The position numbers were made by a program, and so were the translations under genes. 64,000 bases of DNA, taken from positions 74,407-138,406 of IMG/VR virus record IMGVR_UViG_3300034782_000041; one strand, 5' to 3'. Within the stretch, counting starts at the first letter, position 1. Every line of letters starts with the position of its first letter. Below the pieces are notes generated by a model. The model had not been told where the DNA came from and searched no databases. It saw only the letters and a list, made by a program, of their open reading frames with translations. The DNA comes from a virus. Below, in pieces: positions 3,241 through 61,727 of this stretch.

Positions 3241-3642
3241 CTACGCTTGAGCTTTGCGCCTACGGACGAAGTAGATGGTCGCGCCGATGCCTGCTGCTGC
3301 AACGATGGTGATGACGACGGGCCAGAACCACTTGCGTTTGGTCAGGCCTCCACTCTTCTCGACGTCTTCACGCTTCACCGGGCAACCCTTGGAGGAAGTG
3401 AGCTGGCCGTTTGGTGCGACGACGATTGCGCTGACAACTTTGCCGCCGCTGATCTCTTCCCGATCGAATTGGCCCTTCGCATCGGTTTCTTCTTCGTAGC
3501 TCTCCACGGCGTAGTAGAGCTTGTTGTCTTTGATGACCTGCGAGCGGACCTCGTACTTCCCGGTGCCCGTCGTTGGAATGCCCATGTGGGTGATGAAATC
3601 TTGGAGTACCTCAGGTGGGCACGACTCTGACGTAGCTAGCAT
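3241..3642 (-). CDS. hypothetical tail-anchored membrane protein
   Basis: C-terminal WFWPVVITIVAAAGIGATIYFVRRRK TM segment. Confidence 0.5.
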   Translation of the reverse strand: MLATSESCPPEVLQDFITHMGIPTTGTGKYEVRSQVIKDNKLYYAVESYEEETDAKGQFDREEISGGKVVSAIVVAPNGQLTSSKGCPVKREDVEKSGGLTKRKWFWPVVITIVAAAGIGATIYFVRRRKAQA

Positions 3643-3651
3643 GACTCTCTC

Positions 3652-3984
3652 CTATTCAGGCTTTTTTGGTTCGGGAGGCAGCTCCGGGGCGGCTAGCGTT
3701 GGCGCTGGAGCTGAGATAGGGGCCGCGAGTGGCTTGGGTTTGCGCGGACGCGGCGCCCGCGGTTTGCGGCTTAGTTGCCGCACGCCGTTGATGTAGCAAA
3801 CGCCCGTCGCCTCACCCAGCGTTCCAAACCCACGCTCGCCCTTCTTGATGCATACCTGGCGCCCGGTGTTGTCCGGCTTGGAGAGCATCCCCGCCATCTC
3901 CTCGACGATCTTCTTCGGACCGCGCGGAGTGGCCGCGACGCCTGTCTCGTAGACGCCCCAGTACTGGTAGCTCTTTTTCGGCAT
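3652..3984 (-). CDS. hypothetical protein with Pro/Lys-rich tail
   Basis: 110-aa ORF, C-terminal PRAPRPRKPKPLAAP… low complexity. Confidence 0.45.
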   Translation of the reverse strand: MPKKSYQYWGVYETGVAATPRGPKKIVEEMAGMLSKPDNTGRQVCIKKGERGFGTLGEATGVCYINGVRQLSRKPRAPRPRKPKPLAAPISAPAPTLAAPELPPEPKKPE

Positions 3985-4046
3985 GAAACTACCCTATCAT
4001 GATCGCTCACGCGATCAAAATAGGGTTCTGTGCGGGGGTAGACAGT

Positions 4047-4388
4047 CTAGGCGAGTCGATCGCGGGCCTGACTGATGATCCAGTCAGCAAGGACGTTGGA
4101 GTACAGGTCCGAGAACCCGTTTCTGCCGGCCGCGCTCTCCTCGATGAACGCCTCAGCCTCACGCTTGCCTTCCTCGCTCGCGGCCCAGCCAATTTCCATG
4201 CTGGCAGCGGTCTGCTGCGCGACTTGTTGAACGCGCTCAACAACCTCCCTGCGAGCTTCCTCGAACTTCGACAGAGCATTGGCGGCTACGGCGGCGGCTT
4301 CCTGGATTCGAGGATCAGCAGCAGCAAACATGGTCGTGCTCCAGCAGCAAATGATTTGGTTGGCAAAGGCGGGATCAGGAGAGTTCAC
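4047..4388 (-). CDS. hypothetical protein
   Basis: 113-aa ORF. Confidence 0.45.
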   Translation of the reverse strand: MNSPDPAFANQIICCWSTTMFAAADPRIQEAAAVAANALSKFEEARREVVERVQQVAQQTAASMEIGWAASEEGKREAEAFIEESAAGRNGFSDLYSNVLADWIISQARDRLA

Positions 4389-4454
4389 GTCTATGCCATA
4401 ACACAGAGGTGTGACAGCCCCACTAGTGTTGTCTGCGTAGGCAAGCTGCGTGTA

Positions 4455-6809
4455 TCAACAACGCGAGAAGCCGCACAGCGCGCACTTGGCGCAGCCCTCG
4501 GCGTAGTACAGCGCGACCTGGTGGCAATCTGGGCAGATGTCGCCGAAGGCAACGTGTTTGTGGCCGTTGCCGTTACCGTTGCCATTCCCATTCCCGTTGC
4601 CGTTTCCATGGCCATTTCCGTGCCCGTGCCCATTGCCGTGCCCGTTGCCGTGGCTATCCCCCTTAGGTGCCCCTGGAGGCTCTACGACGGCCTCTGCTGG
4701 CGAGGCCTGCGTAGACGCTCGGCGGCTTTCGAGCGCGTCAGCGAGCGAACGGAGGGCCTTGGCGACCCCATCTGGGAGTGACAGGACCCGTTCTTGCCCA
4801 AATCCCACCGAATCCCCCCCGCCGATGCCCGAGAGCTGGTCCGCGATGAGCTGGAGGCGCCGCTCGGGGCTGATCGGGCTGTCCAGCCGGAGCACCAGGG
4901 ATCCCAGCCGGGCAATGGCCTCACAGTCGGCGCTGACTGCTGTGCCAGCACGGCTGACAGCGAGCCAGGTTTCAAACGGCCGGTCGTTGATGTCCAACCC
5001 GACCTTGACGCTGAGCTTGCCTGTGGGCGTCTTGATCATCTCGCCGAGGAGATCATATGTACCCGTCGGGATGGGGTGCAGCTCGGGGCGCTTGCCGGTA
5101 CCAAGCGTCAGGGTTTGATTCGCACGGCACTGATCGCGATAGACCGTGATGCCCTTGCAACCTTCTTCCCAGGCGAGCTTGTAGGCGCGTTCTACGTCAG
5201 CAACGGTCGCGTCTTTGGGCATGTTGATCGTTTTGGACACCGCGCACTCGACGTGCTGCTGAAATGCGGCTTGCATCTGCACATGCGCAGCTGGATCGAT
5301 TTCGTTGGCGACCGCGAAGACACGTTGCCATCGTGTGGGCACGTCGGGATCGTCTCGAACGGTGCCGTTCTCTTTGACGCGTTCCATGAGCGCATCACTG
5401 TAGAAGCCTTCCCGCTTCGCGATCTCGACGAAGTCTGGGTTGACGTCTACCATCTCCATGTCGGCTTGCCTGCGCGTCTGGACGATGGCAAACAACGGCT
5501 CTATGCCGCTAGAACATCCCGCGATGATCGAGATGGATCCGGTTGGCGCAATCGTGGTCACCGTCCCGTTGCGACGGTGTTTGCGCCCCGCCGTGAAGTG
5601 TTTTGAACGCTCGAATGCTGGAAACGGTCCACGAAGCGCTGCTAGCTCCTCGCTGGCTTCGATTGCCTGCGTGTTGATGAACTTCATCACGTTGCCGGCG
5701 AGGTCGCGCGCTTGCTGTGACGCGTAGGGAACACCCATCTTGATCAGGAGGTCCGCCCAGCCCATGACGCCGAGGCCAACACGGCGATTTTCCCGTGTGC
5801 GTTCTGCCAACTGAGGAATCGGGTACTGGTTGACGTCGTGGATGTCATCGAGGAAGCGCACAGCGAGCTGCGTCGTAGCTTCGAGTCGCTTGAAGTCCAA
5901 TTCTCGATTTGCTACGTCGTAGAAGTTGACGAGATTGATCGATCCCAGATCGCAAGCGTCATACGGGTGAAGTGGCTGCTCGCCGCATGGATTTGGGGCT
6001 TCAATCGGATCGTCGGCCGTCGTCAACGGATCGAGTTCATTCACACGATCTAGGAAGAAGAGCCCTGGCTCACCTGTGGCATGTGCGTTGCGAACGACCC
6101 GATCGAAAACCATTCGAGCTGCTAGCTCGCTCACAACCTCATTCGTGCGTGGGTTGACCAGCGCGTACATTGCGTCTGCTGCCAACGCGTCCATGAAGGC
6201 GTTCGTGATCCCGACACTGATGTTGAAGTTCTGTAGCTCGCTCGGATCTTTCTTGCAGTCGATGAAGTCGAGAATATCCGGGTGGTCGCAACGCAAGACG
6301 CTTATGTTCGCCCCGCGCCGAACGCCGCTTTGCTTCACGCACTCCGTAACGTTGTTGTATGCCTTCATGAAGCTGATCGGACCACTCGCAAGTCCGGTAG
6401 TGGATCGCACGAAGTCGTCTTTGGGGCGCAGCCGCGAAAAACTGAACCCCGTCCCAGCGCCCTGTTGGTGGCTCAATGCCATGTCGCGCAGTGTTCCGAA
6501 GATGCTCGGCATCGAGTCCTCGATGGGCAACACGATGCAGGCGGACAGGAGCCCGGCGGACAGTCCCGCATTTACCAAGCAGGGCGTGTTTGGCATGAAA
6601 TCTCGGGCGGCCATCATGCGATAGAAGGAGGGCCACACCGTCTCCGGATCGACGCCGTGATTGCGTTCTGCTCGTGCGACATGCTTGGCTACTGCAACGA
6701 AGCGGTCGCGTGGCGTCTCGATGACTTCCCCTTTCTCGTTCCGCTTCAGATACCGTTTCGCTAGGACACTCTCCCCAATAGTGGTCAGATTCGGTTGCAG
6801 CAGTTCCAC
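4455..6809 (-). CDS. nrdJ: ribonucleoside-triphosphate/diphosphate reductase, class II (adenosylcobalamin-dependent), with C-terminal His/Asn/Gly-rich linker and Cys4 zinc ribbon
   Basis: 784-aa product with class II RNR hallmarks (NTPCLVNAG…, PNPCGEQPL, DACDLGSINL, TIAPTGSISIIAG); C-terminus HGNGHGNGHGHGNG(NG)n then CPDCHQV…CAKCALCG. Confidence 0.93.
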   Translation of the reverse strand: MELLQPNLTTIGESVLAKRYLKRNEKGEVIETPRDRFVAVAKHVARAERNHGVDPETVWPSFYRMMAARDFMPNTPCLVNAGLSAGLLSACIVLPIEDSMPSIFGTLRDMALSHQQGAGTGFSFSRLRPKDDFVRSTTGLASGPISFMKAYNNVTECVKQSGVRRGANISVLRCDHPDILDFIDCKKDPSELQNFNISVGITNAFMDALAADAMYALVNPRTNEVVSELAARMVFDRVVRNAHATGEPGLFFLDRVNELDPLTTADDPIEAPNPCGEQPLHPYDACDLGSINLVNFYDVANRELDFKRLEATTQLAVRFLDDIHDVNQYPIPQLAERTRENRRVGLGVMGWADLLIKMGVPYASQQARDLAGNVMKFINTQAIEASEELAALRGPFPAFERSKHFTAGRKHRRNGTVTTIAPTGSISIIAGCSSGIEPLFAIVQTRRQADMEMVDVNPDFVEIAKREGFYSDALMERVKENGTVRDDPDVPTRWQRVFAVANEIDPAAHVQMQAAFQQHVECAVSKTINMPKDATVADVERAYKLAWEEGCKGITVYRDQCRANQTLTLGTGKRPELHPIPTGTYDLLGEMIKTPTGKLSVKVGLDINDRPFETWLAVSRAGTAVSADCEAIARLGSLVLRLDSPISPERRLQLIADQLSGIGGGDSVGFGQERVLSLPDGVAKALRSLADALESRRASTQASPAEAVVEPPGAPKGDSHGNGHGNGHGHGNGHGNGNGNGNGNGNGNGHKHVAFGDICPDCHQVALYYAEGCAKCALCGFSRC

Positions 6810-13583: not shown

Positions 13584-14145
13584 GTCTAGCCATCGAGCCA
13601 GCATTCTGGGACCACCTGGTGTTGATCTACGGCGTCTCGATTGGGTAGCCATCGAGCTAGCATTCCGGGACACCCGTCCTCGCGTTCTCTGTCACAGTTA
13701 TCGCACGCAGTGTAGTCTGGTTCGTTGTTGTAGCCGCACTCGACACATTTCCAAATGAGTCCAGCACGGATCATGGCTGATTCAATTGCATCGGATTCAT
13801 CATCTTCGAGCTAGCATTCCGGGTCGCGACTTTGAGACCGCGCGCCAGGTTGTCGCTCGCGTCTCGATTGGGTAGCCATCGAGCTAGCATTCTGGGTTCG
13901 ATCTCGACGCGTCGAAAGACGAGCTAGGCTGTCTCGATTGGGTAGCCTCGATCCCAAATCCGACGTCTCGATTGAGTAGTCATCGAGCTAGCATTCCGGG
14001 TCTTCGTTGGTTGCGGGGCCGAGGTCTCGATTGAATAGTCATCGAGCTAGCATGGTTGTCGTCGCCCTTGGTGCTCAAGTCTCGATTGAATAGCCATCGA
14101 GCTAGCATGATTGTCGTCGCCCTTGGTGCTCAAGTCTCGATTGAA
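13584..14145 (-). CRISPR. degenerate distal block of CRISPR array (truncated and variant copies of the 36-bp repeat; includes a 55-bp tandem duplication)
   Basis: Full copies at 13634-13669, 13861-13896, 13965-14000; truncated copies at 13584-13610, 13808-13823, 13931-13947, 14024-14053, 14079-14108, 14134-14145; intervening segments 23-37 bp plus one 138-bp segment; units 14024-14078 and 14079-14133 are a tandem duplicate. Confidence 0.55.
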
Positions 14146-14185
14146 AAGGGATGCTCCCCTGACCGACAAGGAAGCATTCAAGCTG

Positions 14186-14518
14186 CTACATGCCAGTCGC
14201 CTCGACGACCTTCTTGATGATCTTTTCGAGTTTGGCGTACTTCTTCGTGAAGGCGGCTTCGTACCCGGAATGGTAGATACCGACGTCCGGCGTCAGGTAC
14301 GCCTGTAGCACGCTTTTGAGTACGATCTCGGTGTTCGGATTGGCGTACTGCAACTCGTAAATAGCCTCCCGAGCCACATTGATCACCACCTCCGCCTTTT
14401 CCCGCTCATATGGTTGTAGGAGGTCTTCCAGAGTCTCGATCAATCGGTCGGCGGCAGACACCAACGTTTCACGGACCTGTGGATCCGTTCTTTTCTTCGG
14501 TCTCGGTTTCATTCCCAT
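14186..14518 (-). CDS. hypothetical 110-aa protein encoded inside the CRISPR array (between the two repeat blocks)
   Basis: ORF with GGAGGA RBS 6 nt upstream of ATG (minus strand …acggaggactgaaATG); flanked on both sides by array repeats. Confidence 0.5.
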   Translation of the reverse strand: MGMKPRPKKRTDPQVRETLVSAADRLIETLEDLLQPYEREKAEVVINVAREAIYELQYANPNTEIVLKSVLQAYLTPDVGIYHSGYEAAFTKKYAKLEKIIKKVVEATGM

Positions 14519-14550: not shown

Positions 14551-14951
14551 GTCTTGATTGAATAGCCATCGAGCTAGCATTCCGGGGGGCCGGCCACGGA
14601 AAAACACCGCTGGCCCCGTTTTGTAGTCTCGATTGGGTAGCCATCGAGCTAGCATTCCGGGTCTGGGGCGCGAACGCCTTCGGGCTCGGCTCGATACGGT
14701 CTCGATTGAGTAGCCATCGAGCTAGCATTCCGGGGAGCACCCCGAGGAGCGAACTGGCTTCCGCTACGCGTCTCGATTGAGTAGCCATCGAGCTAGCATT
14801 TCGGGTGGCAGAAAGCTTTGGCCGCGGCAATTGCACGCGAGCTGTCTCGATTGAGTAGTCATCGAGCTGGCATTCCGGGGCGGCTGCGCCAGTGGTTTGA
14901 AACGCACACCCGACTGTCTCGATTGAGTAGCCATCGAGCTAGCATTCCGGG
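14551..14951 (-). CRISPR. CRISPR array, six 36-bp direct repeats (consensus plus-strand GTCTCGATTGAGTAGCCATCGAGCTAGCATTCCGGG) with five unique 35-39 bp spacers
   Basis: Repeats at 14551, 14626, 14699, 14770, 14844, 14916; spacers 39/37/35/38/36 bp; each repeat contains inverted repeat CTCGAT…ATCGAG (6-bp stem, 9-nt loop); variation among copies is confined to the loop. Confidence 0.8.
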
Positions 14952-16522
14952 GGCACCTCGTTTTTCTTGTGCCGTTTCGCGAACCTGGAGGTCGTTTTTC
15001 GAGCGGTAGGTTTTTTCCATTTGCCGGCTTGGTAGAGGGCCCACATGTTTCGGGTGCTTATGTCGTCGCAGTCTCGTTGCGTACCACACCCCTCGCAACG
15101 AAGCATGCGTTGTCCGTTCACGGGAGTGATTGTGCCACAATCGGGGCAACGCGCACTCGTGTGCTTCGCTTCTACGATCCGCATTCCATCGGCGCCAAAC
15201 ACTTCCCGTAGCACCTCCACTGTTTCTCCTGGTGCCGCATGTTGTCCTTGCCGTTGAGCCTTCTGAGGCAGCCCGTGTTCCTCCTTGATCTTCTTGTGCC
15301 CTGTATTCTTGACGATGACAGCCGCGTATTGACAGCGTAGCTCACGCACCCATTCACGCAGCGCTGCGCGACGTCCGGTTCGGCTACGCCGCCAGCAACC
15401 GCACTCATACCGCCAGAGATGCATTTCGCGTGCAACCCACGCGTCTTGATCCGCGGTGAGTACTCCTAGACTACGTAGTCTTCGTACAGCCTTTTGGCAG
15501 GATTTCGTCTTACCGACTACAGGCCAGCACGCCCGTACTTCGTTGAGGCGCTTGTCACGGTGTGAGTGGATCTTCTCCGCACGGTCAGCGCGTGCCGTCC
15601 AACTGACTGGCATGCGTAGCTCACTCACGTGACCGGCCGCATCACGCGCGTAGCCCAATCGCCAGGAGCCGTCAGGCATCTTGCGCCAGCTGACGTCTAC
15701 CGCAACGACGCCTTCCTCGGCCGCGTCCGTCCTTGGGTCAGCATCCTTGCAAGTGAACGCGACCGACCAAACCTGCTGATCGGCATTGTAACGCCGCCGC
15801 ACATGGACATGTGTGATTTGTCCAGACAGCTCGCGGTGCTTTTCTATGCGGATCGGGGTGCAGAAAATGGGTGTAGCCCCATTGCTGCCGATCCTAATTT
15901 CTACCGTGTGCCGTCCAAGTCCGTTACGTGTACGTCTTCCTGTCCGTGCGTCTGGCGCTTTGTGAGTCTGTACGTACCGATGAGGATCTCTTCCGGGTTG
16001 AATTTGGACGGCCGCGACGTCTCCTTTGCGCCACGACCGGAATTTCACCGGGCGGAGCAGAGACGTGTGTTGCCAGGCTGCCGAGAAGGCCTGTTCGATC
16101 ACGTTGTAGGTTCCCCAGTAGAGTCCTTTCGCCGCCCATGTAGTTCGTAATGGACGAACGTCGAGTAGCGGTATAGCACGGGTAGCTGCCCACACTGCAT
16201 TCCAGTGCGCGCGGCAAGCCGCACACTTACAGTTGTCGTGCTCTGCCGGGTGCGCCTCGCGGTGCTTTTCGCACTCAGCGCAGTCGCAGTCGTACTTCTC
16301 GTGGGGAGGCGACGTCTTCGCCCATGCATCTTGGCACTTCTCGCACTGACATCTACCTCGGTGCGGTGGTGGTGGCGGAGATTCGCCGCCCCATCCGATT
16401 TGGCGCCGCTTGTTCTCCGCTTCAACGAGCGCGTTGTAGTACTGACGGCCTAGCCTCATCTGCCTGAGCAAGTTCGGATCTTGGCTAGGGCGGGCTCCAT
16501 ACTTGTAAACGCGTGCTGGCAT
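14939..16522 (-). CDS. cas12: TnpB/Cas12-family RuvC nuclease-like protein, candidate single-effector of a type V CRISPR-Cas system
   Basis: N-terminus VYKYGARPSQDPNLLRQMRLGRQYYNAL matches the TnpB/Cas12 WED start; GVVAVDVSW (RuvC-I-like); GMRIVEAKHTSARCPDCG…RCEGCGTQRDCDDISTRNM (zinc finger plus RuvC-III RD motif); probable start 16522 with AAGGAG RBS; 3' end overlaps the first array repeat. Confidence 0.8.
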   Translation of the reverse strand: MPARVYKYGARPSQDPNLLRQMRLGRQYYNALVEAENKRRQIGWGGESPPPPPHRGRCQCEKCQDAWAKTSPPHEKYDCDCAECEKHREAHPAEHDNCKCAACRAHWNAVWAATRAIPLLDVRPLRTTWAAKGLYWGTYNVIEQAFSAAWQHTSLLRPVKFRSWRKGDVAAVQIQPGRDPHRYVQTHKAPDARTGRRTRNGLGRHTVEIRIGSNGATPIFCTPIRIEKHRELSGQITHVHVRRRYNADQQVWSVAFTCKDADPRTDAAEEGVVAVDVSWRKMPDGSWRLGYARDAAGHVSELRMPVSWTARADRAEKIHSHRDKRLNEVRACWPVVGKTKSCQKAVRRLRSLGVLTADQDAWVAREMHLWRYECGCWRRSRTGRRAALREWVRELRCQYAAVIVKNTGHKKIKEEHGLPQKAQRQGQHAAPGETVEVLREVFGADGMRIVEAKHTSARCPDCGTITPVNGQRMLRCEGCGTQRDCDDISTRNMWALYQAGKWKKPTARKTTSRFAKRHKKNEVPPEC

Positions 16523-16556
16523 ACATGCTCCTTTGCTTGGCTCCTCGGAGCCCCAT

Positions 16557-16886
16557 TCAACCAACGTTGCAAGCAGCTAGAGCTGCAATGATCTTCTCCG
16601 ACATGCCTTGTAGGCCTTTACCGTATTCGCGGATTCCACGCACCGTGAGTAGAATATCGCGGAGTTGATCCTGGTCATCGCTGACACGCTGAATGAGGTC
16701 AGCTACCAGGTCGAGAAGGCCAGCTTGCTCTTCTGGCGACAGCGGTTGCAGGATGCCCTCACGAAGCTGTGTGGCCACGATACGGGCCATCTCAGGGCGC
16801 ATTGTCGAGAGGGCTGCCGCAGCACCGCCAGGAACCGTGTATTCGTGTGCGGGATCATCTGTCATCAGCGTTTTCCTCCTCCTCAT
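16557..16886 (-). CDS. hypothetical protein
   Basis: 109-aa ORF directly upstream of the cas12-like gene; no Cas1/Cas2 features. Confidence 0.45.
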   Translation of the reverse strand: MRRRKTLMTDDPAHEYTVPGGAAAALSTMRPEMARIVATQLREGILQPLSPEEQAGLLDLVADLIQRVSDDQDQLRDILLTVRGIREYGKGLQGMSEKIIAALAACNVG

Positions 16887-16910: not shown

Positions 16911-17735
16911 TCAAGTCAGGTTGGACGTTTCCGACGCTGATTGAACGATCTCCACTGCGTTGGCCTCGCTCAGATCGAATTCGTCCTTGAGCTTCTTGAT
17001 CAAGCCGGCACGGAACAACGCAGTACGTTCGACGTTCGCCTCCCTGTACTTACCGATGACCTGCAACACAGGCGCCCAGTCTTGGATGAGACCGTCCAGC
17101 GCTTGCGTAACACGGTCAGCGGACGCGATTTTGCGCAGCTCGGCAACGTTGTCACAGACATCGTTGATCACGTCAGCGATTTGTTTTGGCGCGTTGGCGT
17201 CGAGTACGCTGTGGACGATGGCAGTACTGGCCAGCTTTCCTATGCTCGGTACCTCGGCGCTGCTCTGCGCAGCTCCTGCACTGTATATGTTGCGGATACG
17301 TTTGAGCCGATCAATACGGGCCGCGAGATCGCTGAGCCCTGTAGAGGCTGCATCTGCGGTACCAGCTTCAGCTTCAGCTTCAGCTTCAGCTTCAGCTTCA
17401 GCTTCAGCTTCAGCTTCATCTGTGTCATCCTCGTCCGTAATCTCACGAACCGCGAGCATCACGTCACCAAAACGAACCGTGTCGCCGACTTTGACGGCTG
17501 CTTTGTTGATCTGCTTCTCGTTGATGAACGTACCTTGCACGCTACCCAGATCGACTAGGTGGACAATGCCTCCAGGCTCGCACTCGAACACCGCGTGCAT
17601 CCGACTGACTGAAGGATGGTTGAGCTTCAACCCCGAGCGTTTCATTTTTCCAATCTTGATCACACTGCCGCGGCAGGTGTGCACCTCACCTTGCGTGCCG
17701 TCACTGTTGATCTCAGCCAATACGATTGCCCTCAT
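16911..17735 (-). CDS. FHA (forkhead-associated) domain protein with (EA)7 repeat
   Basis: N-terminal GSVIKIG…SRMHAVFE…LVDLGSVQGTFINEKQI…GDTVRFG fits the FHA fold; (GCTTCA)n encodes EAEAEAEAEAEAEA. Confidence 0.7.
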   Translation of the reverse strand: MRAIVLAEINSDGTQGEVHTCRGSVIKIGKMKRSGLKLNHPSVSRMHAVFECEPGGIVHLVDLGSVQGTFINEKQINKAAVKVGDTVRFGDVMLAVREITDEDDTDEAEAEAEAEAEAEAEAEAGTADAASTGLSDLAARIDRLKRIRNIYSAGAAQSSAEVPSIGKLASTAIVHSVLDANAPKQIADVINDVCDNVAELRKIASADRVTQALDGLIQDWAPVLQVIGKYREANVERTALFRAGLIKKLKDEFDLSEANAVEIVQSASETSNLT

Positions 17736-33546: not shown

Positions 33547-33804
33547 ATGGCGTCACACCACATCAACGTGCTTCTTGACGACGAGCTACACACGTACCTG
33601 GTACAGCATGCGCAGACCCGCGGCATATCCCTGTCTGCTGCGCTCCGCGATCTACTACGCCACGGTCTCGGCATCGTCGCGTCAGGCGAGGACGCAGGAT
33701 GGCGAGAGGGCTACACCGCGGCGTGGGCAGCGGTTCGCCGCGCTGCGCTGGACGCCGTTGAGCAAGTCTCACCCGTCTATCCTGACGATACATTTCACTC
33801 GTAA
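33547..33804 (+). CDS. ribbon-helix-helix (CopG/Arc-like) DNA-binding protein, apparently leaderless
   Basis: INVLLDDELHTYLVQHAQTRGISLSAALRDLL beta-strand plus two helices; ATG directly after a promoter-like TTGAAC…TAGCAT with no SD; paralogue at 62471. Confidence 0.6.
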   Translation: MASHHINVLLDDELHTYLVQHAQTRGISLSAALRDLLRHGLGIVASGEDAGWREGYTAAWAAVRRAALDAVEQVSPVYPDDTFHS

Positions 33805-34898
33805 TCAGCTCGACGCGGCGGCCAAGTTTTTGGCTGCGTGTCATTTGATGCGGCGGCGTTTGCTTCGCCATTCGATGGCTCGACAAGATCGCGAAGCACT
33901 TCGCCGGGTGCTTGTGCTGGCAGTTTGCTCGCTTTGTCGTAGCGCTCTGTTGTCGCCTTTGAGGCATGTAGCATCGCCGCCTGACGATCTTCGATTGAGA
34001 CGCCACGCTGACCTGTAATCGTCGCGAACGAACGCCGAATCGCATGAGGTGTTGCGCGTGTCAGGTCGAGCCCTGCGCGTTCCGCTGATCGCTTCACGGC
34101 GTTCCTGACTGTCGTGGGGCCAACGGCCACGTCGGCGCCTTCGCGTCGCGGGAATATTGGCCCTGCGTCGATACGATTGGCTTGGCACCATTCCGCCAGC
34201 TCGTGCGACAACCAAACTGGAAGTGGCACGATGGCATCCTTGCCACCTTTCGCGTGCACTTGCGCAGCGAAGCCACCAGGGGTGTCGAGGAGCGCATCAC
34301 GACGAAGGCGTGCGATCTCCGCTCGACGCCAACCCGTACCTGCTAGCGTGGCGCAGATAACCCAATCGCGACGTTCTACCCACGGCGCGGTTGACGGCGG
34401 CCGTATTAGGAGACGGCGCATTTCGTCTTCTGCGAGCCAGGGCGTCTTCGGCTCGTGATCCACTTTGATGTTTCGGACCTCGCGCGCGGGGTTTGCGTCT
34501 AGCACCCCAGGCACCTCCGAGAACGCAACTACCAGCGCGGCGTAGGTCGAACGGATCACGGCCAGTGCGCGTGAGCGCGTCGTCTTCGCCCTGCCAGCGT
34601 CCTGCATGCTCACGAGATAGCGCAGAACGTGCAGGGGCAGCGCGTGCAGTGGATGGACCCCTTCGGCGGAGAGCCAAGCCACCCAGCGGCGCCAGTCGTC
34701 ACGGTAGCCGCGTACGCTCTCTGGGGAGTCCAGGGTGCGCCGGAACGCCAGGAGTGCCTCCTCTAGGCGGTCTTGCAGATCGGGGCTCAGAGCAGCGTCT
34801 GAGGGCCTAATTTGCCAGGGTGGGCGCGGGATCAGGTCGGTTCCCTCGGACATGATCTGAGAGCTTGCCCGACAACCGGTATTATCGTCAACTGGCAA
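33795..34898 (-). CDS. int: tyrosine recombinase / phage integrase
   Basis: C-terminal catalytic motifs …RATPHAIRRSFAT… and …LHASKATTERYDK (R…HxxR…Y); N-terminal SAM-like core-binding region. Confidence 0.85.
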   Translation of the reverse strand: MPVDDNTGCRASSQIMSEGTDLIPRPPWQIRPSDAALSPDLQDRLEEALLAFRRTLDSPESVRGYRDDWRRWVAWLSAEGVHPLHALPLHVLRYLVSMQDAGRAKTTRSRALAVIRSTYAALVVAFSEVPGVLDANPAREVRNIKVDHEPKTPWLAEDEMRRLLIRPPSTAPWVERRDWVICATLAGTGWRRAEIARLRRDALLDTPGGFAAQVHAKGGKDAIVPLPVWLSHELAEWCQANRIDAGPIFPRREGADVAVGPTTVRNAVKRSAERAGLDLTRATPHAIRRSFATITGQRGVSIEDRQAAMLHASKATTERYDKASKLPAQAPGEVLRDLVEPSNGEANAAASNDTQPKTWPPRRADYE

Positions 34899-59397: not shown

Positions 59398-60630
59398 TCA
59401 GATTTCTATCTCGATGACATCAGCGAACTCAGGAATTTCTTTTCTGCTCGCGTAACCGATCAAGGCGACGGTCAGCTTACGGCAGTTGCGCGGCCGTTCA
59501 GGCCACGTCTCACACGGCATACCGTCTGTCAGATGGATCGCGTAGTCGAACTTCTTGCTGGCGCTCTCGATGGCCGCGTACGCAGGCGTGTATAGCGTTC
59601 CGCCGCGACCGATCAGAGTCTTGGCGAGAGCAGCTCGTCGTGTGCCGGGACGGATCCAGTCGGCGAAGTGCACCTCCGCGTCGTGTGTGACCAGAAATAT
59701 GGCCACACCCGTCGCACGGCTGATTGCTTCCACCTCGCTGAGTGCTTGTTCGAGGTCTTCGTCAGAGACAGAACCGCTGGTGTCTACCGCCACAGCGACG
59801 AGTGCCTTGGACGTGATTCCACCTGGGAGAATGAAGTCGCCCGCGAACGACCGCCGGTTGCGTCGCTGCCAACTAACGTCGTCGTTGCCGCGTTCAGCGA
59901 TTGCACGTGCACATGCGTTGCGTAGCACCGCAGTCCACGCCACTTTGGATGGTGGAACGCGGAGCACGCGTGCAAGCAGATCTCCAGAGCAGTCGCCTGC
60001 CGAGCGCGCGTTCTGCTCAGCGCTGTGAGCAAGCTGCCGCCAGGTCCGTGCTGACTCAGCTGTGGAGGGAAACGCCGCGCCGTCTTCTGGTGCTTCACCC
60101 TCGGCGCCATCGTCATCACCATCGCCATCACCACCCTGAGGTGGAAGCACGCCACAACCACCGGTTGCTCCGGGCATCTTGCCCAGCGAGGCTTGACCGT
60201 CATCGCCTGGCTGTTCTTCCTCGACCTCGTAGAGTTCTTCTGTTGTGTACTCGTTATGCGCCGGGTCGGTGGGAAGTAACCCCATGGGCGGCATTTCCAG
60301 CCCTATTTGCACGAGACCGAAGTTGATTGCGCGATCCGCGGCACGATTCCAGCGGAACGGCTTGCGGTTCATTCGCCGCCCAAAGTGAAACAGCAGCAGA
60401 TGCATGATCTCGTGCGCCAGAACGAAGGTAAGCTGCTTGTCCGAGAGCTGATCGCAGAAACTCGGATTGAGGTACACGCATCCACGTACGTCAGCACAAG
60501 CAGTCTGGATGTGGATGGACACACGCAGGTAGATCTTCGCACCGGGTAGAGCAAAGAATGGGTGTCGCCAACCAAGGCCCAACAAAAGCCCTCGGGCACG
60601 CTGGATGAGCTGTCTGGTCGCTGATGTCAT
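59398..60630 (-). CDS. putative metallopeptidase (HExxH) plus VWA-like domain protein (DUF2201-type partner of MoxR ATPases)
   Basis: N-terminal …LTFVLAHEIMHLLLFHF…; acidic Gly/Asp linker; C-terminal LVAVAVDTSGSVSDEDL VWA/MIDAS-like. Confidence 0.7.
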   Translation of the reverse strand: MTSATRQLIQRARGLLLGLGWRHPFFALPGAKIYLRVSIHIQTACADVRGCVYLNPSFCDQLSDKQLTFVLAHEIMHLLLFHFGRRMNRKPFRWNRAADRAINFGLVQIGLEMPPMGLLPTDPAHNEYTTEELYEVEEEQPGDDGQASLGKMPGATGGCGVLPPQGGDGDGDDDGAEGEAPEDGAAFPSTAESARTWRQLAHSAEQNARSAGDCSGDLLARVLRVPPSKVAWTAVLRNACARAIAERGNDDVSWQRRNRRSFAGDFILPGGITSKALVAVAVDTSGSVSDEDLEQALSEVEAISRATGVAIFLVTHDAEVHFADWIRPGTRRAALAKTLIGRGGTLYTPAYAAIESASKKFDYAIHLTDGMPCETWPERPRNCRKLTVALIGYASRKEIPEFADVIEIEI

Positions 60631-61727
60631 GCTGCCCCACGCTGCACTCTTGCCAGCAGTTGGATTTGGGCTTTGCGCCCGACGGTGGCGAACTTAGAGG
60701 CCTGCGGCACCTTGTTCATTAGGAACCGTCCGCAGGCAGCTCCAATCTCTTTCCGCAGCCGGCCCGCGTAGGTCCACGCGGCCCAGACATCGGTCTGCGC
60801 GACTCGGGCCAGGAGACCCAGGGCAGCGATCTGCTGATCGAGCGATTCGGGCAGCCGTGCCTTGGTTGGGTTGGCCGCGATCTCATCGATGGATGGCAGG
60901 TGCAGACGGAGCTTGCGAATTGCCAGGTACGCGCCAGCAGCGGACGGTCCTACGGCACCTGTCAGGAGCGCGTAGCCAACGTCATCCTCTTTACCGCCAT
61001 GCGCTGCCAGGCAGGAGAGGCCGATCTCCCAGCCGCGAGGGGATGCCCACGGCTCGCCCTGATCAACGCTTGCACGCGGCGGATCATAAACGAGCAGATC
61101 AGTAGCGTGGGAAAGCGTCGCGGCGAAGTCAGCGAACTCCGCAACGCATGCGGCCTGGAAGGCGTCCTCGTCGAGCACTACGGGAGAAGCGTGAACCGCC
61201 TCACCGTTGAAGTAGGACTGCACTTCCGCGAATGAGGGCTGATAGCGAAGCAGCACGATCCGGTTGATGAATGCCGCCGACAGCTCGATGCCGCCCGGTG
61301 CCTGTTCCGGCGGGTTGCACGCGAGTACTACGGGGCTGCCCGGGTGCAACGGCGTGCCGCCTGCGTTGCGTTCCATCGCAACACGTAGCATCGGGCCCTC
61401 GACCGATTTCGGCATCGCGGTCGCCTCGTCGATGAATAAGACACCCGCAGCGTCCACGACGGCCCGAATCTCGGGAAACAGCTCGCGCAGCACCCGACCC
61501 GACTGTAGATCGCGGTATGGCAGCCCCGCGACGTCTGTCGGGTCCATGTTGGACGCGATCAGATCGTGGCAAGGCAACCCAATGGCGGCCGCAGCATCAC
61601 GCACGAGGGCCGTTTTGCCAACGCCTGGCGAACCTAGCAGCAGTGCGGTTCGCCTCGCGCGAAGGGCAGCGGCCACCGCGGCGGCTGCTTGTGTGTAGTT
61701 CAACACGGGAATGAGATACTTGGACAA
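60627..61727 (-). CDS. MoxR-like AAA+ ATPase
   Basis: LLLGSPGVGKT Walker A; VLFIDEA Walker B; TTG start 6 nt after a GGAGGA RBS that follows GCCCCTCGGGGC. Confidence 0.8.
   Translation of the reverse strand: MSKYLIPVLNYTQAAAAVAAALRARRTALLLGSPGVGKTALVRDAAAAIGLPCHDLIASNMDPTDVAGLPYRDLQSGRVLRELFPEIRAVVDAAGVLFIDEATAMPKSVEGPMLRVAMERNAGGTPLHPGSPVVLACNPPEQAPGGIELSAAFINRIVLLRYQPSFAEVQSYFNGEAVHASPVVLDEDAFQAACVAEFADFAATLSHATDLLVYDPPRASVDQGEPWASPRGWEIGLSCLAAHGGKEDDVGYALLTGAVGPSAAGAYLAIRKLRLHLPSIDEIAANPTKARLPESLDQQIAALGLLARVAQTDVWAAWTYAGRLRKEIGAACGRFLMNKVPQASKFATVGRKAQIQLLARVQRGAA

Follow-up and report, generated by a model that had tools for sequence, protein, structure and literature searches.

A stretch of 64,000 nucleotides from the IMG/VR virus record IMGVR_UViG_3300034782_000041 (positions 74,407 to 138,406 of that record, hereafter the window) carries a gene for a compact CRISPR effector which is a full-length relative of Cas12m (type V-M). 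The glutamate expected in the RuvC-II motif of this protein is replaced by lysine, and the resulting D-K-D triad (D276-K405-D486) characterises a clade of small viral and metagenomic proteins. We put the probability at about 0.7 that the locus is a minimal, adaptation-less type V-M-like system on a phage-like mobile element, the effector of which binds DNA in an RNA-guided manner and silences it without cutting.

The gene and its translation start are as follows:
14939..16522, minus strand: compact Cas12m-like effector gene, 527 amino acids (aa), triad D276-K405-D486 (open reading frame and translation, profile search, PADLOC, AlphaFold2 model, Foldseek and BLASTP)
16528..16533, minus strand: ribosome-binding site AAGGAG, read from the sequence, 5 nt upstream of the ATG at 16522

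Family assignment of the effector

The open reading frame (ORF) at 14939-16522 has 527 codons counted from the ATG. This start is preferred over an upstream TTG at 16564 because the AAGGAG site and the N-termini of the homologues agree on it. Thirty-six close homologues, all metagenomic, were found in a large protein database at 35-76% identity, and in the family alignment they start at an equivalent M-x-x-[RK]-V-Y-K-Y-G.

Searched as a single sequence, the protein matches in Pfam only Cas12f1-like_TNB (E = 6.9e-06), over the C-terminal zinc ribbon. In the PDB the same query hits Cas12f and TnpB, at weak E-values and over the C-terminal TNB/RuvC part, and the NCBIfam model guided_TnpB reaches 12.3 bits against a cut-off of 100. 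A profile made from the alignment of the 36 homologues and run against the PDB matches Cas12m over nearly its full length. The matches are to 23vw, a record entitled 'CRISPR-associated DNA-binding protein Cas12m' (1.7e-43), to Cas12m2 (8HHL; 8.2e-25) and to GoCas12m (8PM4; 3.4e-17), with TnpB and Cas12f far behind. PADLOC labels the effector Cas12u1 (E = 1.1e-35). The AlphaFold2 (AF2) model has a mean pLDDT (predicted local distance difference test) of 86.7, and the top four Foldseek matches of this model in the PDB are three states of Cas12m2 and GoCas12m (E = 9e-22 to 3e-18, TM-score about 0.6). The best of them is Cas12m2, with 8.7e-22 and a TM-score of 0.60, and TnpB and Cas12f again come behind. 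The sole match in the plasmid database is a protein of Allomeiothermus silvanus pMESIL02, which is MsCas12m (WP_013159911), the orthologue characterised in Bigelyte 2024; BLASTP aligns residues 4-493 of the effector with it at 26% identity (E = 5e-24). A tblastn search of GenBank phages with the effector gave no match.

The closest known systems are the Cas12m proteins of type V-M (formerly V-U1), namely MmCas12m/Cas12m2 (8HHL, 8HHM, 8HIO), GoCas12m, MsCas12m and PmCas12m. The effector shares their bilobed WED-REC-RuvC architecture, in which the RuvC domain carries an inserted TNB zinc ribbon, as indicated by the AF2 model, the Foldseek matches and the invariant Cys residues of the ribbon. An earlier reading of the window from its letters alone (the sequence-only reading) had called the gene a Cas12-like effector and had proposed structure prediction and structural alignment as a check. 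The profile, fold and BLASTP matches bear out the call, and the modelled structure is closest to Cas12m2 and GoCas12m, ahead of TnpB and Cas12f. The same reading had offered a nuclease-attenuated protein like Cas12k or Cas12c; an attenuated binder is indeed the best supported reading, but the family is Cas12m.

The D-K-D clade, its RuvC pocket and its zinc-binding motifs

The three RuvC motifs lie in the gene as follows:
15686..15706, minus strand: RuvC-I, VAVDVSW, residues 273-279, with the invariant D276 (codon 15695-15697), from alignments
15299..15325, minus strand: RuvC-II, AAVIVKNTG, residues 400-408, with K405 in place of the catalytic Glu (codon AAG, 15308-15310), from alignments and the AF2 model
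15047..15073, minus strand: RuvC-III, D484-C-D486-D-I-S489-T490-R-N492, with D486 as the catalytic equivalent by alignment to Cas12m2 D579

The profile alignment pairs D276, K405 and D486 with H317, D485 and D579 of Cas12m2, the catalytic residues identified in Omura 2023. Four independent alignments place K405 on the acidic residue of RuvC-II: those with 23vw (at 'VLEE'), with Cas12m2 (at D485), with GoCas12m and with MsCas12m. In the BLASTP alignment with MsCas12m, K405 is paired with the Glu of ALIVEDFNL, and DCDDISTRNM with YDQDENAARNL. D276 aligns with MsCas12m D274, the residue mutated in the study of that protein (Bigelyte 2024). In the AF2 model D276 lies within strand 272-281, K405 ends strand 401-406 at the position expected of beta-4, and D486 starts helix 485-498; the predicted RuvC topology is canonical. 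It follows from the alignments and the modelled topology that the RuvC-II Glu has been replaced by Lys and not displaced elsewhere. The sequence-only reading had recognised the aspartate in VAVDVSW and had noted the missing Glu in AAVIVKNTG, and it was right on both counts; the alignments place no canonical RuvC-II Glu elsewhere in the protein. The 'RD' motif that it assigned to RuvC-III is present, as the beginning of RDCDD (residues 483-487), and its D484 is invariant, but the catalytic equivalent is D486.

When 1.84 billion representative proteins were searched exhaustively with the profile, 1,597 relatives were obtained at E <= 1e-30. Triads were surveyed in the best 150 of these together with the viral homologues, all aligned to the family profile. 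D-E-D was found in 115 proteins and D-K-D in 46, with N-D-D, N-E-D and H-D-D in fewer. In a neighbour-joining tree 43 of the D-K-D proteins and one D-S-D protein form a single, monophyletic clade of compact proteins (472-531 aa), all of them (about 44) metagenomic or viral. The sister of the clade is P0046, which has Glu at RuvC-II and a RuvC-III shifted by one residue, and the next relatives are D-E-D proteins with a length near 585 aa. Forty-three of the 44 members have K405, while all 115 D-E-D relatives have Glu at that position; D276, D484 and D486 are present in all 44. Three longer D-K-D proteins outside the compact clade (P0056, P0129 and P0134) keep the usual W-D-Q-D-x-N-A motif of RuvC-III. 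The change from Glu to Lys has arisen more than once, since these three lie elsewhere in the tree.

On IMG/VR contigs the clade has four close relatives and 14 more distant ones, 18 loci in total. A scan of 185,579 species-representative genomes with the clade's own peptide patterns found no member. In the databases covered, unlike Cas12m in general, the clade occurs in viral and metagenomic sequence only. The triads of Cas12m known at the time of Omura 2023 and listed there are HEK/HQK, HDD, DED/NED and DED/DND/NED, and NDD has also been described. D-K-D does not appear in the published clade lists, nor was it found in the searchable literature. Type V-M would thus gain a distinct, monophyletic clade that is apparently restricted to mobile elements.

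The positions at which the clade is conserved and differs from the D-E-D relatives cluster near the active site (E405K, F407S/T, L409H, R410K and K413). In RuvC-III the changes are Q485R, N488V/I, A489S and A490T, by which the D-x-N-A-A of the D-E-D relatives and of Cas12m becomes D-x-[VI]-S-T, with S489 and T490 invariant. The pocket is more cationic in the clade, and several hallmark residues of a catalytic site are gone. The comparison with the D-E-D relatives revealed no compensating acidic residue specific to the clade at any position of the protein, which leaves the suggestion of the sequence-only reading that a non-canonical catalytic residue is used without support. Because the clade-specific changes cluster in the pocket and follow a cationic pattern, they point to conversion of the site rather than to random decay. 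The recurrent replacement by Lys, together with the coordinated remodelling, argues that the pocket has been put to a new use and not simply lost. Metal A could still be held by D276 and D486, with the ammonium group of K405 in the place of metal B; such a site would bind phosphate without hydrolysing it.

Outside the triad, the clade differs from other Cas12m proteins in the following regions:
16202..16363, minus strand: Pro-rich loop and Cys/His module, residues 54-107, with three H..C-x-C-x2-C units, at the position of the REC2 coiled-coil insertion
16202..16231, minus strand: conserved knuckle C98-K-C100-A-A-C103-R-A-H106-W107, the sole Cys unit conserved across the clade
14963..15010, minus strand: basic C-terminal tail PTARKTTSRFAKRHKK, conserved, with R508 and K509 invariant
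The zinc ribbon common to the family is at:
15086..15148, minus strand: TNB zinc ribbon, an insertion in the RuvC domain, ligands C459, C462, C476 and C479 (Pfam Cas12f1-like_TNB; the four Cys are invariant)

Nine of the 22 Cys residues of the effector fall within residues 58-106, in the motifs CQCEKCQ (58-64), CDCAECEKH (79-87) and CKCAACRAH (98-106). Three C-x-C-x2-C motifs were not reached in any of 20,000 shuffles of the protein, in which the maximum was two. These motifs had been noticed in the sequence-only reading, which put them at residues ~70-125; numbering from the ATG gives 58-106, and a start at the TTG would add 14. The zinc-finger module predicted there is plausible for one conserved knuckle, whereas the other two units occur only in the effector and P0002. 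Among 43 members one Cys unit is present in 23, two in five and three in the effector and P0002; 13 have no full C-x-C-x2-C, and most of the 13 keep a C-x2-C-x2-H core. Nearly all of the ~43 members have the conserved knuckle, which in the family alignment reads PP-x-PPH-x(2-20)-[C-x]-C-x2-C-x2-H-W. Conservation reaches at least 90% for C100 and C103, and a His of the H54 type, C98, C100, C103 and H106 are conserved in most members; the sequence of P0035 is truncated ahead of this region. A recent tandem duplication of the three units is not supported, as they share no similarity at the DNA level.

The module comes after the long N-terminal helix and before the next one. The solved Cas12m chains and the D-E-D relatives have at this position the long REC2 coiled-coil insertion (profile positions ~45-63), a Cas12m trait which the clade lacks, having only PP..PPH..CxCxxC there. 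The most economical reading of the pattern is a small putative zinc knuckle that closes a truncated helical hairpin, and the His/Cys knuckle probably binds zinc. The REC2 coiled coil would then have been swapped for a short Pro-rich loop closed by such a knuckle, present in three copies in the effector. The clade proteins are 70-120 residues shorter than other Cas12m proteins, and the conserved basic tail is an addition, common outside the clade only to the sister sequence P0046. The tail is predicted to be disordered (pLDDT below 50 from residue 511). It is missing from the solved Cas12m chains, and the PDB alignments end before it.

The Cys/His module had been compared with the zinc finger of Cas12f. 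Un1Cas12f1 (Cas14a) is likewise a small Cas12 with an extra N-terminal zinc-binding module beyond the TNB ribbon, a module which in the effector is predicted. Homology of the two N-terminal modules is not shown, however: the Cas12f matches are confined to the C-terminal TNB/RuvC part, and the module of the effector sits at the REC2 position of Cas12m, so that it is at most an analogue. Moreover, Cas12f differs from the effector in being an active D-E-D nuclease that uses a trans-activating CRISPR RNA (tracrRNA) and works as a dimer.

CRISPR arrays and the proposed mode of action

Two arrays follow the gene:
14551..14951, minus strand: CRISPR array 1, six 36-nt repeats (CCCGGAATGCTAGCTCGATGGCTACTCAATCGAGAC) and five spacers of 35-39 nt, directly downstream of cas12
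13587..14148, minus strand: CRISPR array 2, degenerate, with rearranged full and truncated copies of the array 1 repeat and short (17-26 nt) or duplicated spacers

The stop codon of cas12 (TAG, 14939-14941) coincides with positions 11-13 of repeat 1 of array 1. The stop codon is within repeat 1 in seven of the eight other clade loci as well, whereas in most D-E-D relatives 8-205 nt separate it from the repeat; the overlap sets the clade apart from other Cas12m. Almost every related locus from IMG/VR or metagenomes has an array with a ~72-nt period downstream of the effector gene. The repeats of 22 loci, aligned after exclusion of L008, L016 and L049, in which helix 1 is out of register, share a pseudoknot of two helices (columns 9-11/20-22 and 14-19/29-34). 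Pairing amounts to 98% and falls to 31-39% if the 3' partners are shifted by 1-3 columns. Compensatory changes occur at eight of the nine pairs, and the covariation score is 0.82 versus 0.21 in shuffles. The paired columns are the same as the pairs reported for the CRISPR RNA (crRNA) of PmCas12m. The locus has the array expected of Cas12m, a 36-nt repeat with a two-helix pseudoknotted handle, and the repeat sequence is MsCas12m-like.

No anti-repeat was found in the 64-kb window, no Cas1, Cas2 or Cas4 among its 76 ORFs and no match in an Rfam scan of it; a scan for promoters and terminators around the locus did no better than shuffles. The effector would use no tracrRNA, and its locus resembles those of Cas12m in this respect and in having no adaptation genes. 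The arrangement of gene and array suggests that the cas12 mRNA is co-transcribed with the array.

One spacer of array 1, the second (14806-14843), is shared with the related locus L019, where it is the thirteenth (2796-2831), with a small indel between the two copies. The L019 effector is 62% identical to that of the window and the repeat is the same, but the other spacers differ. As one spacer is shared and the others are not, spacers have been both inherited and turned over. The related loci have 6-21 spacers, which are regular in length, mostly unique and different between relatives. Searches for targets gave no convincing match. There are no protospacers for the window spacers inside the window, and the arrays have no match in GenBank phages and a single one in plasmids (36 nt, 89%, E = 0.03), which is treated as chance. 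The 22-nt seeds of the five spacers of array 1 have no match in IMG/VR, nor does the shared spacer in IMG/VR or in the 185,579 GTDB species genomes. When 274 spacers of the related loci were compared with the related loci collected, the only matches were those of shared arrays.

Array 2 contains full, 5'-truncated and 3'-half repeats, and a 55-nt unit, consisting of a 30-nt repeat remnant and the spacer TTGAGCACCAAGGGCGACGACAA, is duplicated in tandem. The distal part of the L019 array shows a similar decay. In L002 repeat copies occur on both sides of the effector gene (3499-4500 and 6470-6722), so that arrays flank the gene.

The properties of characterised Cas12m proteins suggest how such a system may work. 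D-E-D, H-D-D and N-D-D orthologues bind double-stranded DNA (dsDNA) without cleavage, in a manner dependent on a protospacer-adjacent motif (PAM), and still block plasmids and phage (Bigelyte 2024); PmCas12m (N-D-D) likewise binds without cleaving. In the H-D-D Cas12m2, which lacks the second metal (B), the DNA stays uncut and the non-target strand is bound in the pocket (Omura 2023). Processing of the pre-crRNA by Cas12m is independent of the RuvC site (Bigelyte 2024; Omura 2023). The effector, with its non-canonical triad, belongs to a family known for binding without cleavage.

By analogy, a transcript of cas12 would run without a gap into the array, the stop codon being inside repeat 1. 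The pre-crRNA would be cut into guides, each with a pseudoknotted, repeat-derived 5' handle and a spacer, and no tracrRNA would take part. The guide-loaded effector would find and bind complementary dsDNA and form an R-loop. Cutting would not follow, the RuvC-II Glu that holds the second catalytic metal having been replaced by an essentially invariant Lys. The pocket has been rebuilt as a cationic, hydroxyl-lined site (K405, K410, K413, R485, S489 and T490) from which the Asn and the Ala-Ala have gone; D276 and D486 remain and may hold one metal. It would instead clamp the displaced strand of the DNA, like the H-D-D pocket of Cas12m2. The effector would interfere by blocking transcription or replication of its target, probably a competing mobile element or a host gene.

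Several points weigh against this account. The absence of cleavage by a D-K-D protein is argued from sequence and from the precedent of Cas12m. The invariance of D276, K405, D484 and D486 reveals selection on the pocket, which fits strand binding and also residual chemistry. The REC2 coiled coil has been deemed important for holding the PAM-distal heteroduplex (Omura 2023), and as the clade does not have it, the strength of binding may differ from that of the characterised Cas12m. The clade may lack the Arg-rich pocket of the REC lobe too: the region which in Cas12m2 forms the Arg-rich pocket for the non-target strand (R111, R112 and R126; REC1/REC2) is largely replaced. P0020 has no Cys knuckle, and the extra two Cys units of the effector are poorly conserved and modelled with low confidence (pLDDT 55-69 over residues 51-100, compared to 89-93 for the equivalent region of the single-unit P0016). 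No protospacer was found for any spacer in the searches described above, which accordingly yielded neither a PAM nor a target. Finally, no structural phage gene was recognised in the window, so that the element can only be called phage-like.

The strongest competitor retains the RNA-guided binding and changes its purpose. The effector would be a fixed regulator that represses particular host or phage genes with a few inherited guides, as do TldR proteins, which are TnpB-like repressors with a dead nuclease. The lack of recognisable adaptation genes among the 76 ORFs, the degeneracy of array 2 and of the distal part of the L019 array, and the retention of one spacer in common with L019 between effectors only 62% identical would all suit such a role, and phage-borne nuclease-dead guides acting as repressors are discussed in the literature. 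The number of mostly unique, regular spacers in related arrays and their differences between relatives are, however, typical of turnover. No spacer matches the window, and the shared spacer matches none of the 185,579 species genomes. We regard a fixed regulator as rather unlikely.

Less likely still is a D-K-D pocket that remains catalytic, using one metal and the lysine to nick the displaced strand, to cut single-stranded DNA or RNA, or to process its own pre-crRNA. That D276, K405, D484 and D486 are essentially invariant at 35-76% identity goes beyond what simple decay would leave, the independent occurrence of the Glu-to-Lys change in at least three other Cas12m-like lineages suggests that lysine is favoured and not merely tolerated, and many rearranged TnpB and Cas12 sites have been argued to stay active (Altae-Tran 2023). 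Even orthologues with an intact D-E-D triad, however, leave dsDNA uncut (Bigelyte 2024), and the H-D-D Cas12m2 is stated to be inactive because it has lost metal B (Omura 2023). The Asn and Ala-Ala of RuvC-III are lost and no acidic residue is gained, and processing of its own pre-crRNA is made improbable by the independence of this step from RuvC in Cas12m. A similarly doubtful extension is a RuvC site of a new kind, with one metal and a lysine and with guide-dependent nicking or RNA cutting, in a protein whose knuckle array replaces REC2, possibly by way of dimerisation.

That the gene encodes a TnpB/IS605-type transposon nuclease or is a decaying pseudogene with incidental repeats is highly improbable: Pfam and NCBIfam recognise only the TnpB/Cas12f-type TNB ribbon, and the single-sequence PDB matches, weak as they are, are to Cas12f and TnpB, but the full-length profile and fold matches to Cas12m are well above those to TnpB, nearly every relative has, after the gene, multi-spacer arrays built on a covarying repeat of the Cas12m type, some 44 intact, diverged ORFs keep many invariant residues, and no transposase was found adjacent to the gene.

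The binding-without-cleavage account places the effector beside TldR, Cas12c and Cas12k, RNA-guided proteins of the RuvC fold that bind rather than cleave target DNA, although these belong to different lineages. TldR uses a single omega-type guide, in contrast to the CRISPR array of the effector locus, and Cas12k acts together with Tn7 proteins. In Cas12c the RuvC site is still active and serves in RNA processing. If the account is true, the clade, with 472-531 aa and a crRNA-only guide, is among the smallest natural nuclease-free Cas12 DNA binders, and its small size would be of practical use in base and epigenome editing, where delivery capacity sets a limit. A clade without the coiled coil also makes the proposed importance of REC2 for Cas12m directly testable.

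Host element and neighbouring genes

The ORFs of the window are almost all on the minus strand. The genes recognised include:
4455-6809: ribonucleotide reductase
33795-34898: integrase
59398-60630: HNH endonuclease
60627-61727: ATPase

The window also encodes a regulator of the excisionase type and members of several PHROG families whose function is unknown, and many phages have distant homologues of one of its proteins. Genes for capsid, portal, terminase or tail proteins were not recognised in the 64 kb, and a scan of the window for tRNAs found none. There is no transposase adjacent to the effector gene, and no neighbouring ORFs are conserved beside it across the related loci. Because the neighbours are not conserved between loci, the mobile unit is the effector gene with its array.

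Several smaller features were noted near the locus and elsewhere in the window. Two genes upstream of the effector gene is a gene for an FHA-domain protein (16911-17735, minus strand) with a Glu-Ala run encoded by a GCTTCA tandem repeat (17347-17424). Between the two arrays lies a 110-codon ORF (14186-14518, minus strand) with a GGAGG site of its own; it matches nothing in Pfam, and the related loci lack a counterpart. A 'guide' formed by the stretch that follows the final array 1 repeat would cover the ribosome-binding site and start codon of this ORF. Inside array 2 there is a 62-codon ORF (13586-13774, minus strand) with a sub-threshold match to a RanBP2-type zinc ribbon (Pfam E = 6e-06, 25.8 bits versus a cut-off of 27). 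Its 3' third consists of repeat sequence, and it is either a real gene flanked by repeats or an artefact. One further ORF of the window matches the PADLOC entry 'mad1' (6e-09).

A phage-borne relative has been described recently, MvCas12m of the myxophage MV-1 (bioRxiv 10.64898/2026.09.14.751636). Like the effector, it is located beside a CRISPR array and has no cas1, cas2, cas4 or tracrRNA. It has 610 aa and keeps the triad D305-E463-D555, whereas the effector has 527 aa, a Lys in the middle position and no coiled coil. The preprint calls the Cas12m of its myxophage the first, which contrasts with the IMG/VR loci L005-L018, where many D-E-D Cas12m-like genes with arrays are present on predicted viral contigs of 43-245 kb. 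Cas12m-like effectors appear to be common in phages.

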